Shown here piece by piece: positions 41,573-63,193 of a DNA stretch of 63,193 bases. The position numbers were made by a program, and so were the translations under genes. Under the pieces are notes generated by a model, which made no database searches, had not been told where the DNA came from, and saw nothing but the letters and a program-made list of their open reading frames with translations. Numbering within the stretch: position 1 is the stretch's first letter; each line of letters begins with the position of its first letter. This DNA is from Thermoanaerobaculia bacterium (GTDB taxonomy: Bacteria; Acidobacteriota; Thermoanaerobaculia; Gp7-AA8), in NCBI GenBank assembly GCA_036399695.1, contig DASWMP010000008.1, positions 1 through 63,193 of the forward strand, written 5' to 3'.

Positions 41573-59302
<17,730 letters not shown>

Positions 59303-59306
59303 GTGA

Positions 59307-59314
59307 CCTTCCTC
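59307..59314 (-). promoter_or_regulatory. Shine-Dalgarno-like GAGGAAGG for the main NRPS (supports the ATG at 59302)
   Basis: The minus strand reads GAGGAAGG-TCAC-ATG-GAA-ACC. Confidence 0.55.
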
Positions 59315-59394
59315 GAGATGACGCATCCGCCGGCCGGTTCGCCGGGGATGCCGGGTGAGTTGCTGAATGGGGGGAGTACGCCGCGGGCGGGAGG

Positions 59395-59773
59395 CTAAGT
59401 TTTGCGTGCCGGAGACAAAGCTTTGAGTCCCGGGGTCAAAGCTTTGAGTCGCGGAGTCAAAGCTTTGAGTCGTGGAGTCAAAGCTTTGAGTCGCGGAGTC
59501 AAAGCTTTGAGTCGTGGAGGCAAAGTTTTGACTCCCGGAGGCAAAGTTTTGAGTGGCGGAGTCAAAGTTTTGAGTGGCGGAGTCAAAGCTTTGACTCCCG
59601 AGGCAAAAGTTTTTGAGTCCCGAGGCAAAGCTTTGAGTCGCGGAGTCAAAGCTTTGAGTCGTGGAGTCAAAGTTTTGCGCCCTGAGTCAAAGTTTTGAGT
59701 GGCGGAGACAAAGTTTTGAGTGCGGGAGGCAAAGCGTTGGGTGCGAGGGTCAAAGCTTTGAGTCAAAGCGTTG
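59395..59773. repeat. tandem array of about 18 units of 21 bp, consensus TCAAAGCTTTGAGTCGYGGAG
   Basis: Read directly from the sequence. The units are head-to-tail, and each carries the 12-bp palindrome TCAAAGCTTTGA (variant TCAAAGTTTTGA). The array abuts the stop codon of the upstream NRPS relic and ends 93 nt upstream of the ATG at 59302. Confidence 0.95.
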
Positions 59774-62700
59774 TCACAGCTTCACCTGCCCCAGGTATTC
59801 GATGTTGCCATCGTCCAGCCAGCGGCCGCGGTCACCGGTTTTGTACATGCGGGTGCCGGGGACGAAAGGATTCGGAACCCACTTTTCCTGCGTGAGGCGG
59901 GCGCGGTTCAGGTAGCCGCGCGGCAGACCGTCTCCCGACACGTGCAGCTCGCCGGCGACGCCGACCGGTTGCGGACGACTGCCGCGGTCGAGAATGTAGA
60001 TGCGTGTGTTGTCCACCGGCCGGCCGATGGGGATGACGGCGCGATCGAGCGTGGAGCAGTCGTACGACGTGGCGTCGATCGCCGCCTCGGCCGGACCGTA
60101 AACCTGATGCAGGACGGCCTTCGGGAATGTCGCCCGGCAGCGCTCGGCCGAGGCGCGGTCCAGGCCTGCGCCGGTGCAGAAGACCCGGCGGACGGTTTCG
60201 AACGTATCGCCGGTCTCGGCGAGGAACGTGCGCAGCAGCGAGGGGGTGAAATGCACGGCCGTTGCTTTCGAATCGGTGAGCACCCCCGCCAGCGGCGCCG
60301 AGGAAGCGATCGTGACGGACGCCCCGGCGGTGAGGGGCCAGAAGAGCTCCCCTACCGCGGTGTGGGAGGCGTGGGATGCGTGCTGTAGCAGGACGTCGTG
60401 GGCGTCGAGCGGATGACGGCGCTGCATCGAGCTGACCCGGTTCACCAGTGCCCGATGTTCGACGACGACGCCTTTCGGCTTCCCTTCCGCTGCCGCGGGA
60501 TAGACGACATAGCAGGCGCTCGCGGCTGAAGCGTCGTCGCGGAGCAACACACCCTGCGTTTTCAGCGCGGCGGCGCGGCGGACGATCTCCCCCCACTGGC
60601 GGTCGAGCACGACCAGCTTCGCGTTCGGTGCGAGCAGCGGGGCGAGCTTGTACCGGCAGGACTCCTGCGTCAGGACGACGGCGGCCTGACTGTCCTGGAG
60701 GACGTACGTGAGCTGCTCCTCGGCATCGGCCGGATCGAGCGGCAGATACGTCCCACCGGCTCTGACGACGCCGAGTGCGCCGATGGCCAGGTCGAAGGAG
60801 GGCTCGACGCAGACGGCCACGACGCTCTCCGCCGTCACGCCGAGCGCCTGCAGATACAACGCAAGCTCGCCGCTCTTGTCGGCGAGGGCCTGGTAGCTCA
60901 GTGGGTGTCCGGCGACGGTCACGACCGTCCTCGACGGAGCGGCGGCGGCCTGCGCGGAGAAGAGCTGGTGGATGGAGCGGTCGCGCGGATAGTCGGTGTC
61001 GGTGCTGTTGAAGCCGACGAGCAACTGCTGCTTCTCCACTTCGGTGACGCATTCGAGCGCCCGGATCTTCGTGGTGGGCCTGGCGGCGATGGCGCGGCAG
61101 AGCGAGGTGAAATGTACGCCGAGGCGGGCGATGGTTTGCGGCGTGTAGCGGGCGGCGTCGGTCAGGCGGAGGCAGAGCGCTGAACGCAGCGGGGCGGGCG
61201 CTTCCTGCGTCATCAGCAGCGCCGGGAAATCGCCTGCGGCCTCGGGCGCCGCGGCCTGGTGCGCGTAGGCCTCGTCGCAGGTCTTCTTCACCTGCGAGAG
61301 CAGCGCGGAGAAGGTGTCTTCAGGCTCGATGCGGCTGCGGAGCGGCAGAAGGCGTCCGCCGCCGGCGGTCACGACGCAGATGTCGCTTTCGCCGGTGTAG
61401 CGATGGAGCAGCACCTTGAACGCCGCCAGGAGGATCATGAAGAGGGACGCGCCTTTGTGCTGCGCCACCGCTTCAAGCTGGGCGGACACGTCGGCATCGA
61501 GGTCGAATGTGTAGCTGCCGGCGACAGGGTCGCTGCTCGTGCGCGGATGGTCGGCCGGCAGTTCGAGACGCTCCGGCAGGCCGCTGAGCTTCTGCTGCCA
61601 GTACGCGCGGCCTTGCTCGAAGAGCCGCGACGCGGCGAGCTGCTGCTGCTCCTGCTCCGTCAGCATCGGGAGCTCGTGCACCGCCAGATCAGGACTGGCA
61701 CCGAACCCCCGCAGCAGGACGGCATAGTGCCGGTACAGCGCTTCGATCGTCTCGCGCGAATAGAGGTCGGGGTTGTACTTGAGGTGGACGCTGAACGCAG
61801 ACCCCTGCGCCTCGTAGATTTCGAGGCCCAGCTCGAAGTCCCCTTCCTGCCAGATGCCCGGGACGTTCTCGAGCTGAAACAGCTCCTGCTGCAGCATCGA
61901 CATGAAGTCCGCGGGGTTGACGAAGTTCTGGTAGGCGTACGAGACGCGGAAGATCGGTGCGTTGTCACGCCGCGTCGACCTGAGCCCTTCGACGATCAGC
62001 GGGAAGGGGAAGCTGGAGTGGTAGAGCGCGTCCAGCATCGTTCCCTGCACTTTGCGCATGAACTGCTTGACCGTCAGCGGCGCGCCGCAGTGCACCCGCA
62101 GCGGCACCATGTTGATGAAGTAGCCGACCTCCGTCGCGAACTCCTGCGACGGCCGTCCCATGACCGGCATGCCGACGATGACGTCGTCCTGGTTCGAGTA
62201 GCGATGCAGCAGGAGCTGGAAAGCGGCGAGGAAGATCACGGACGGCGGCACCGCGTGCGCTTTGCTGAAATCGCGCGCCCATGCGCCGAGGTCTTGCGGC
62301 AGGTCAGTGACGAGCGTGTCGCCGGAGAAGGTTGTCTGCTGCGGGCGCTGCGTGCCCGGCAGGAGCTCGAACAGCGGCAATTCGCCGTCGAGCTGTTGTT
62401 GCCAGTAGCGCGCGTGCGCGGCGCCTTCGGACGATGCGAGCATCGCCTCTTCCCAGGCGACGAACTTCTGATAGCCGGGCAGCGGCTGCACCGGCCGCGG
62501 CGAAATGCCTTCGATCAGTTGCTGGTAACAGTCGAGGAGCGCCTTGAGCACGAGCACGGCCGAAGCGCCGTCGATGATGATGTGGTGCACGGTGAGCAGG
62601 AGGACCGGCTTCTCGTTCGCGCGGGCGAACAGCTCGATGCGCGTGAGCGGCCCGCGCTCGAGATCGAAGGGCTGCTTGGCGCGCGACTGCAGGAACGGCA

Positions 62701-63154
62701 GCAGTTGTGCGTCGCCGAGGGCAAGCGTCTGGTGCTGAAGTGACGTGCGGCAGGAAGCGTCGACGCGCTGGTAGAGGGCGCCGTCGCGCTCGATGACTCT
62801 CGCGGTGAGGATCGGGAGCTCGTCGAGCACGCGGTCCCACGCTTCCGCCAGCACGGCGGGATCGATGTCCGCGTTGATCCGGAAGCAGAGCGGCACGTTG
62901 TACGCGCTCATCCCGGGATTCATCTTCTGCAGGATGTACAGCCCCTTCTGCCCCGCGGAGAGCGGGAACTCGACGGGCGTGACGTCCTCCGCCTGCAGGA
63001 AGGCGATGAGCTCCGGCTTGAGACGGACGATGCCGTCGCGCAGCTCCTGCGTCAGCGCACCCTTCTGCGCGTAGCAGCTCAACTGACCGGCATGGGCAGA
63101 CAGCTTCACCCCATTGCTGGCCAGCTTGCGGAGAAGCTCGTTGACGGTTTCCAT
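59774..63154 (-). CDS. decayed, 3'-truncated NRPS module (dock-C-C remnant-degenerate A; no carrier domain); possible pseudogene
   Basis: The ORF is open to the window edge (GTG at 63187). The ATG at 63154 gives METVNELLRKLASNGVKLSA..., paralogous to the start of the downstream NRPS. It contains a docking domain (63154-62993) and a complete C domain with intact HHIIIDG (62567-62587). Next comes only the C-terminal half of a second C domain, with internal deletions (about 61627-60953). The A domain has ruined core motifs: YPAAAEGKPKG instead of YTSGSTGxPKG (60470-60502), HTAVGE instead of FDVSVWE, and GPAEA instead of GPTEA. The protein stops at ...EYLGQVKL, before motifs A8-A10, and has no T domain. 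Confidence 0.85.
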   Translation of the reverse strand: METVNELLRKLASNGVKLSAHAGQLSCYAQKGALTQELRDGIVRLKPELIAFLQAEDVTPVEFPLSAGQKGLYILQKMNPGMSAYNVPLCFRINADIDPAVLAEAWDRVLDELPILTARVIERDGALYQRVDASCRTSLQHQTLALGDAQLLPFLQSRAKQPFDLERGPLTRIELFARANEKPVLLLTVHHIIIDGASAVLVLKALLDCYQQLIEGISPRPVQPLPGYQKFVAWEEAMLASSEGAAHARYWQQQLDGELPLFELLPGTQRPQQTTFSGDTLVTDLPQDLGAWARDFSKAHAVPPSVIFLAAFQLLLHRYSNQDDVIVGMPVMGRPSQEFATEVGYFINMVPLRVHCGAPLTVKQFMRKVQGTMLDALYHSSFPFPLIVEGLRSTRRDNAPIFRVSYAYQNFVNPADFMSMLQQELFQLENVPGIWQEGDFELGLEIYEAQGSAFSVHLKYNPDLYSRETIEALYRHYAVLLRGFGASPDLAVHELPMLTEQEQQQLAASRLFEQGRAYWQQKLSGLPERLELPADHPRTSSDPVAGSYTFDLDADVSAQLEAVAQHKGASLFMILLAAFKVLLHRYTGESDICVVTAGGGRLLPLRSRIEPEDTFSALLSQVKKTCDEAYAHQAAAPEAAGDFPALLMTQEAPAPLRSALCLRLTDAARYTPQTIARLGVHFTSLCRAIAARPTTKIRALECVTEVEKQQLLVGFNSTDTDYPRDRSIHQLFSAQAAAAPSRTVVTVAGHPLSYQALADKSGELALYLQALGVTAESVVAVCVEPSFDLAIGALGVVRAGGTYLPLDPADAEEQLTYVLQDSQAAVVLTQESCRYKLAPLLAPNAKLVVLDRQWGEIVRRAAALKTQGVLLRDDASAASACYVVYPAAAEGKPKGVVVEHRALVNRVSSMQRRHPLDAHDVLLQHASHASHTAVGELFWPLTAGASVTIASSAPLAGVLTDSKATAVHFTPSLLRTFLAETGDTFETVRRVFCTGAGLDRASAERCRATFPKAVLHQVYGPAEAAIDATSYDCSTLDRAVIPIGRPVDNTRIYILDRGSRPQPVGVAGELHVSGDGLPRGYLNRARLTQEKWVPNPFVPGTRMYKTGDRGRWLDDGNIEYLGQVKL

Positions 63155-63162
63155 GGATTGAT

Positions 63163-63193
63163 CTTGGAGTGCGGTGGCGAACGCCACCGCTCT
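63163..63193. repeat. left half of a family-1 palindromic element, cut by the window edge
   Basis: CTTGGAGTGCGGTGGCGAACGCCACCGCTCT. It shares the TTGGAGTGCGG core with the element at 55408. The last 9 nt (CACCGCTCT) are identical to the first 9 nt of the window. Confidence 0.8.

Follow-up and report, generated by a model that had tools for sequence, protein, structure and literature searches.

A gene whose product begins with an intact docking domain and an intact condensation (C) domain, and ends in what is left of other domains, raises the question of whether it is a fossil or a working part of an assembly line. We asked this of orfA, an open reading frame (ORF) at positions 59774..63154 of the minus strand in a 63,193-nucleotide (nt) stretch of DNA from a Thermoanaerobaculia bacterium; this whole stretch is called the window here. 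The original prediction, made from the letters of the sequence, had described orfA as the relic of a nonribosomal peptide synthetase (NRPS) module and had left two options for it, a pseudogene or a repurposed stand-alone docking-plus-C protein. Substitution patterns show that the whole orfA frame is under purifying selection. We put at about 0.6 the probability that orfA is a conserved functional subunit of a trans-acyltransferase (trans-AT) polyketide synthase (PKS)/NRPS line, in which its intact first C domain (C1) would act in trans on the adenylation (A) and carrier (T) domains of the next protein.

Domain layout of orfA

The gene encodes 1126 amino acids (aa) from an ATG (METVNELL) to a TGA at 59774-59776. 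Its frame stays open to the contig end at 63193, with a GTG at 63187, and the METVNELL start matches METVTEFL, with which the next gene and all relatives begin. In order, orfA contains a TubC-type docking domain, C1, the C-terminal lobe of a second C domain, and a dead A core, a layout that comes from the ORF, from Pfam, and from an independent contig described below.

The two leading domains are intact, as had been predicted for a frame of about 1126 aa. The docking domain (residues 4-54; 62993..63145, minus strand) matches the Pfam family TubC_N (PF18563) with 49.1 bits against a cut-off of 26, over positions 1-51 of the 52-position profile. C1 (residues 63-506; 61637..62968, minus strand) matches PF00668 with 417 bits against a cut-off of 30.6, over positions 5-455 of 456, in two stretches of which the second is weaker. 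Its active-site motif, HHIIIDG, is present together with the second His at residues 190-196 (62567-62587, the coordinates originally given). In an alignment of eight proteins, six carrier-less relatives and two full modules, His190, His191, Asp195, and Gly196 are invariant.

The second C domain (C2') was predicted to be a C-terminal subdomain with two in-frame deletions, and the alignments confirm this. It occupies approximately residues 518-700 (61055..61603, minus strand, as placed by BLAST and alignments) and begins at AYWQQKL, around residue 518, which is the start of the C-terminal lobe. When C2' is compared with the C-terminal lobe of a working LCL domain, the BLAST match begins at query positions 35-41 in nearly all family members. 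Both of the further internal deletions are real and in frame. The one in the C5 region is common to most relatives, P0011 being an exception, and 18 aa of the other are lost even in comparison with the nearest relative listed below, at 83% identity.

The rest of the protein is the core of a former second A domain (A2; residues 732-1122; 59789..60961, minus strand), recognized by Pfam, motif alignment, AlphaFold2 (AF2) modeling, and Foldseek. Residues 732-1082 match the AMP-binding family PF00501 with 211 bits over the entire profile (1-384 of 384). The P-loop (A3) has degenerated to YPAAAEGKPKG (residues 885-895; 60470-60502, again as originally located) where YTSGSTGxPKG is expected, and the FDxS of motif A4, which is FDVS in working domains, reads HTAV, so that the amino-binding Asp is gone. 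The best-kept part of the tail is its last 112 residues (IGRPVDNT...YKTGD...EYLG; 59789..60124, minus strand). The TGA (59774..59776, minus strand) follows directly after ...EYLGQVKL, at the A8 hinge between the A core and the A subdomain, where the C terminus reads ...NIEYLG-QVKL. The description of this domain as motif-dead and truncated therefore stands in its first part and needs narrowing in its second, as the loss is limited to the C-terminal subdomain of about 100 aa (A8-A10) and the T domain, and the Pfam core profile is fully covered.

No Pfam match to AMP-binding_C (PF13193) was found in orfA, and the predicted absence of a carrier domain is likewise borne out by the lack of a match to PP-binding (PF00550) and of a GGxS motif. 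orfA is neither a complete NRPS module (C-A-T) nor the bearer of a working A domain. Judged from its motifs, the tail cannot adenylate, with the P-loop, Asp235, and the A subdomain with its A10 Lys all lost. An AF2 model built on a 50-row alignment has a mean predicted local distance difference test score of 86, above 90 in the A core and 74-94 in the half C domain, and a predicted template modeling score of 0.58, at which the placement of domains relative to one another is not reliable. Foldseek superposes the A core on the cores of PheA and TycA with root mean square deviations of 2.4-2.9 Å; what is confirmed here is the C and A folds only.

The stop itself is real. An independent Logan contig, 3544 nt long and derived from biocrust metagenome sequencing, spans 59643-63186 with 0 differences and 0 gaps. 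Because this contig is identical and twelve homologues end at the same place, the truncation is not an error of assembly.

Descent from a two-module subunit and selection on the remnant

We sought relatives of orfA among 5.8 billion proteins, taking full-length matches that have the same three Pfam families and no carrier. These include P0003 at 83% identity and P0009, P0011, and P0012 at 53-54%. Alignment and domain-wise BLAST give at least 12 complete carrier-less proteins, the window's among them, plus fragments; the relatives are 53-86% identical and come from other Acidobacteriota metagenomes. All frames in this family are open, at lengths of 1105-1625 aa. Common to all 12 proteins are the docking domain and intact C1, a second C piece that starts at AYWQxKL, and the end of an A core, which in all carrier-less relatives stops 0-20 residues beyond YLG(R).

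What distinguishes the members is how much of a first A domain (A1) is left in the stretch separating C1 from the half C domain. P0004, P0006, and P0008 retain a dead A1 core there, together with its subdomain; pieces of A1 are left in P0005, P0010, P0013, and P0018; and no A1 remains in P0002 (the window), P0003, P0009, P0011, and P0012, which completes the set of 12. A further protein, P0007 (locus L024), has the intact series dock-C1-A1-T1-C2-A2, with an A subdomain and T in the following frame. The sole interruption of this series is an in-frame TGA at 11917-11919 of L024, in place of a Trp codon in ...GDLAR(W)LDDGNIQYLGRIDTQVKIRG. The gene called there ends in A7 and the next begins in A8, and the TGA may be a sequencing error, a recent nonsense mutation, or a site of read-through.

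Because this erosion series runs from P0007 to partial and full loss of A1, it traces orfA to a dock-C-A-T-C-A-T protein. Comparison of the domain junctions shows that the family derives, with a single origin, from a two-module subunit dock-C1-A1-T1-C2-A2-T2. It also shows two shared ancestral deletions, one of T1 plus the N-terminal lobe of C2 and one of the A2 subdomain plus T2, after which A1 eroded or vanished repeatedly and always in frame. A phylogeny of C1 groups the 33 proteins that have full C-A-T modules in a single clade, with a Shimodaira-Hasegawa-like approximate likelihood ratio test (SH-aLRT) value of 98, and the carrier-less proteins all lie across that branch. Within the same tree P0012, which has no A1, and P0006, which has kept it, are sisters, so A1 was lost more than once. 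The relic origin proposed for the parts after C1 is thus upheld, and these parts descend from two former modules.

Decay of the A2 motifs is specific to lineage across the 12 proteins. P0011 retains YTSSSTGKPAG and the FDxS Asp, compared with YPAAAEGKPKG and HTAV in the window, and the A4-A5 middle of the core is partly or wholly deleted in 7 of the 12. What is always kept is the N-terminal stretch of about 200 residues and the last stretch of about 110 core residues (IGxPxDNTxIYILD...GELHxxGxGLxRGY...YKTGD...YLGR).

We then compared the window with L010, the locus of the 83% relative, using the ratio of nonsynonymous to synonymous substitution rates (dN/dS) by the Nei-Gojobori method with 95% bootstrap intervals. 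Separate estimates for the C domain and the remnant, a comparison that the original prediction had suggested, give 0.15 (0.11-0.22) for docking domain plus C1 and 0.24 (0.19-0.30) for the whole remnant. Within the remnant, the half C domain and the first 295 codons of the A part each have a dN/dS of 0.27, and the last 112 codons of the A part have one of 0.13 (0.06-0.23). The docking domain plus the start of the working A domain in the next gene gives 0.20 (0.12-0.31). Synonymous divergence (dS) in the remnant is 0.44-0.55. All five indels between the two loci (1, 2, 18, 13, and 3 codons) are in frame, and the ranking of dN/dS is the same against L011 and L013, at a distance where synonymous sites are near saturation. 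These rates show that the dead tail is under purifying selection, most strongly in its last 110 or so residues.

The original prediction had not foreseen selection on the dead tail. We considered gene conversion from neighboring domains as a cause of its conservation and rejected this, because the last A-core segments of the 12 proteins form a clade of their own (SH-aLRT 98), apart from the working A domains of the same loci. The nearest working relatives of the segment are the A domain of module 5 in the window's NRPS and that of module 1 in the NRPS of L011.

The PKS-NRPS junction

If the tail of orfA is catalytically dead, what does its intact C1 act on? To address this we examined the surroundings of the gene at eight loci: the window, L010, L011, L013, L018, L019, L020, and L021. 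At the last six of these, a PKS subunit stops no more than about 38 nt ahead of the orfA homologue. Five of the subunits (L011, L013, L018, L019, and L020) are trans-AT PKSs of 4774-5548 aa with a RhiE-like linker and CurL-like domains; at L021 only the carrier-domain end of the PKS is on the contig. All six end in an acyl carrier protein (ACP) domain and a tail, ...(R)EQ(V/M)LEQVLWQ...YEKVTF followed by the stop, the last residues of which vary as YE[KI][VI]TF, and no thioesterase was found at this ACP-plus-tail end. C1 of orfA begins EFPLSAGQKGLYILQ. Synteny, which places a PKS directly upstream in related loci (6 of 8), confirms for C1 the type suggested in the original prediction, that of C domains to which a PKS passes its chain.

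The window's own genome contains an orthologous PKS of 4926 aa on contig C222 (locus L017; 40-14820, minus strand), with the tail ...LEQVLWQDDALAPGNYDKETF before its stop. This stop lies 39 nt from the contig end, which is a poly-G run of about 20 G. Orthology and tail sequence make this PKS the likely upstream neighbor of orfA across an assembly gap. On the orfA side of that gap, the last 34 nt of the window (63160-63193, …GGTGGCGTTCGCCACC…) are a dispersed hairpin repeat with a summed depth of about 790, compared with about 11 for the gene, and it is because of this high-copy repeat that the assembly breaks upstream of the ATG. The contig ends at the same place in genome contig C8 and in a 120.7-kb Joint Genome Institute (JGI) record.

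Downstream, a multimodular NRPS follows at all eight loci; in the window it has 5917 aa (41573-59326). Its docking domain (59141..59302, minus strand) is a paralogue of that of orfA, and the two are 65% identical in the window and 61-69% identical over the eight loci. Its first C domain (C*) was predicted to lack the catalytic His, and it does. In the window C* is full length and reads HQIVADGAS, with Gln for the catalytic second His (HQIVADG at 58598..58618, minus strand). It is also still full length at L013, with HRIICDSPS, and at L020, with HAIIGDDWS. L019 has an intact HHIIADGWS. At the remaining four loci (L010, L011, L018, and L021) there is no such domain, and the docking domain is fused straight to A-T. 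At seven of eight loci, then, the first C domain of the next NRPS is either absent (four) or without its catalytic His (three). At L010 the protein jumps from ...NIVPRSS to TRDHRCVHELFAERA..., exactly the C domain kept by the window having been removed in frame. These motifs and junctions indicate that C*, which formerly took over the chain from the lost T2, was inactivated at least three times by different substitutions and that at least one of the absences is a recent and separate in-frame deletion.

Alongside this decay of the next C domain, the HHxxxDG of C1 is present in each of the six aligned carrier-less proteins. Such a combination is to be expected if C1 were the sole condensation catalyst between the PKS and the first A-T. 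Of the two options in the original prediction, the comparative data accordingly favor the second, in which a docking-plus-C protein works in trans on the first module of the following NRPS, the next C domain being lost or mutated and C1 intact. The nearest full-length relatives of C1, P0021 and P0035, have the architecture dock-C-A-T; their loci hold terminal modules followed by non-NRPS genes and give no control for the state of the next C domain.

We propose the following division of labor. The docking domain of orfA would bind the C-terminal tail (...LEQVLWQ...YEKVTF) of the last PKS subunit, and C1 would take polyketidyl-S-ACP as its donor and, in trans, the aminoacyl-S-T1 carried by the following NRPS as its acceptor. 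As orfA and that NRPS have similar docking domains, the PKS tail could recruit both of them as the two halves of one split module. The dead tail would be retained for a structural or adaptor role and not for catalysis. It is established elsewhere that one C-terminal tail can recruit several docking-domain subunits, and a stand-alone docking-plus-C protein has been documented (PMC9113145, PMC13324335).

Several observations weigh against this proposal. At L019, one of the eight loci, the next C domain still has an intact HHIIADG. A C domain does not always stop condensing when its second His is lost, as VibH-type results indicate, and C* could stay active. The contig break, 39 nt ahead of the orfA start, hides whether the PKS is adjacent in the window's genome. 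At L010 the upstream gene (476-1609) is not a PKS but a homologue of UDP-GlcNAc 2-epimerase. The orfA sequence turned up only in DNA metagenome runs, with no RNA runs among them. Finally, the proposal explains neither the role of the tail nor how the T1 of another protein gains access to the acceptor site of C1.

A possible, if speculative, answer to these last two points is that the tail is a new adaptor pseudo-domain, formed of the C lobe and the A core with its hinge face open, which would hold the next A-T and thereby seat the foreign carrier at the acceptor site of C1. The tail might, for example, bind the mobile A subdomain or the carrier of the next NRPS, or dimerize through the platform of C lobe and linker. 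Intermolecular contacts can be made through a platform of C lobe, C-A linker, and A core (PMC10510592). If true, the tail would parallel the glycopeptide X domain but be derived from an A domain, and it would show by natural example how the halves of a line can be joined after a module is deleted.

The main alternative is that C1 serves in chain release, as in Bamb_5915, off-loading the polyketide onto a free amine, an alcohol, or a finished peptide, with the next NRPS starting its own chain from a dock-A-T loading module. orfA has no carrier, the PKS ends in ACP plus tail without a thioesterase, a dock-A-T start does resemble a loading module, and there is precedent for stand-alone docking-plus-C proteins whose acceptor is free (PMC9113145). 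We nevertheless regard release as unlikely: the nearest relatives of C1 are all found in C-A-T modules, which points to a carrier-bound amino acid as acceptor, and at all eight loci the next NRPS has a docking domain of the same class, needless for an independent starter. The decay of the next C domain suits condensation in trans at least as well.

It is improbable that only the docking domain and C1 matter and that the tail is junk, its frame kept open to avoid polar effects on the giant downstream genes or a misfolding stub. Catalytic motifs that decay differently in each lineage, and the piecemeal loss of the A2 middle and of all A1 through in-frame deletions, are what such neglect would produce. 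Against this, dN/dS in the tail (0.24, and 0.13 over the last 112 residues, at a dS of 0.44-0.55) is as low as in C1 and in a working A domain. Moreover, translational coupling is not at stake in the window and L010, given a noncoding gap of about 450-570 nt, and no relative has a stop codon simply shifted upstream.

We also considered whether C* still condenses, Gln being tolerated for His, with orfA as an accessory or a regulator. C* persists at full length at three loci (the window, L013, and L020), L019 has it intact, and some C domains tolerate loss of the second His. This reading is nonetheless very doubtful. No C domain precedes the first A-T at four of the eight loci, including that of the 83% relative, where it was excised in frame, and the His has been replaced in three different ways, together with a change of DG to DS or DD, a sign of relaxed selection.

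A neutral pseudogene or fossil, the first option of the original prediction, would account for the dead A motifs, the half C domain, and the missing carrier. It is hardly credible for a family that shares its architecture and junctions in at least 12 complete proteins, with frames open down to 53% identity, a dN/dS of 0.13-0.27 (0.24 in the remnant), indels that are all in frame, and a fixed position between PKS and NRPS. Next to impossible is a split A domain, with the orfA core completed in trans by a separate A subdomain and carrier: all relatives do end exactly at the natural hinge between core and subdomain, but the window lacks the P-loop and the amino-binding Asp, seven relatives have A4-A5 deletions, and no stand-alone A-subdomain-plus-T frame occurs among 33 matches in the 98.8% complete genome, all of which lie in frames of at least 571 aa.

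Related systems and surrounding sequence

How does orfA compare with known uses of isolated C domains? By analogy, orfA would work most like Bamb_5915 and descend from junction modules of the TubC/EpoB type. The latter (dock-C/Cy-A-T) share with it the PF18563 family and the place after a PKS ACP with a tail, and they differ in carrying their own working A and T, of which orfA has neither. In glycopeptide NRPSs, the X domain is a degenerate C-type domain that recruits P450 enzymes. Like the orfA tail, it is catalytically dead and maintained by selection, in its case as a platform for binding; unlike the tail, which is half a C domain and an A core, it has a C fold of full size and a known partner.

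Bamb_5915, of the enacyloxin pathway (partner Bamb_5917), is a stand-alone beta-hairpin docking-plus-C protein that releases the chain onto a free small-molecule acceptor (PMC9113145, PMC13324335). orfA resembles it in being a separate protein that pairs a TubC-type docking domain with a C domain, and it would likewise be recruited by a short C-terminal tail to the carrier protein that closes a PKS line. The acceptor of orfA, by contrast, is probably bound to a carrier on another subunit, and orfA has a dead tail of 600 residues, whereas Bamb_5915 has no module relic. The rhabdopeptide NRPSs Kj12A-C provide the precedent needed for a split module, in that one tail serves several docking-domain subunits (PMC9113145), though there complete modules are used iteratively, and here the recruits would be two halves of one module. 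VibH and OaaC (PMC10510592, PMC13310621) likewise show a C domain working without its own A and T; unlike orfA, they have free amine acceptors and no docking domain, PKS junction, or relic tail. FmoA3 was dropped as a comparison for a pseudo-A domain, a review having shown that its A domain binds its aminoacyl-AMP.

The combination of an intact junction C domain, a selected but dead half C domain with a hinge-cut A core, and a partner with a decaying C domain appears to be undescribed in the literature searched. The family is a natural record of an assembly line that loses modules and keeps working. The C domain of the junction lives on as a protein of its own, and that of the next subunit, made redundant, has decayed along several independent paths. 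What remains of the lost modules is whittled down by deletions that keep the frame, although selection still acts on part of it. If confirmed, the family would offer a testable case in which shared docking lets a C domain act on the carrier of a different subunit, a candidate new noncatalytic role for an A core, and rules by which NRPS lines could be shortened or split. It also calls for caution in annotation, in that "incomplete" modules in clusters from uncultured Acidobacteriota need not be pseudogenes or assembly errors.

The gap between orfA and the next NRPS is filled by a tandem array of 17.9 units of 21 bp (59390..59764), each of which contains a palindrome, GAGTCAAAGCTTTGACTC, centered on AAGCTT. 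The same array follows the orfA homologue of L010 (5240-5581, about 16 copies), and at least 12 further arrays of the unit occur in the window's genome, often at contig ends (C140, C166, C80, C148, C52, C328, C362, and C274). From stop to next start, the gap of about 450-570 nt in the window and L010 is mostly array. Those at the six other loci, of 77-250 nt, are too short for one, and the repeat is absent from the two that were read through (L011 and L013). The array was considered as the cause of the truncation and rejected, since the proteins of those six loci end at this hinge too. The array is therefore younger than the truncation. A scan of the window's gap for the sigma-70 consensus found no promoter.

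The epimerase gene upstream of the L010 homologue has an orthologue of 97% identity in the window's genome, on contig C104 (L027; 1225-2358), where it is followed not by orfA but by a convergent ORF resembling a SAM methyltransferase. The methyltransferase-like call comes from a GxGxG-type motif read in the translation only. As the neighbors of the epimerase differ, the cluster lies at different places in the two relatives, or one of the two contigs is chimeric.

Within the next NRPS of the window, the last 110 A-core residues of modules 3 and 4 differ at only about two positions, a likeness that fits recent tandem duplication or conversion. The C domain of module 2 carries an extra insert of about 38 residues, PPLSHSGSVELPPPGPRLAAAAVGKRQLENHRCRTPNS (around 55400-55550), which is absent from all other C domains aligned. 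After its fifth carrier, the protein appears from its tail sequence to end in a thioester-reductase-type domain (41573-42900), and the product would then probably be released as an aldehyde or alcohol and not via a thioesterase.

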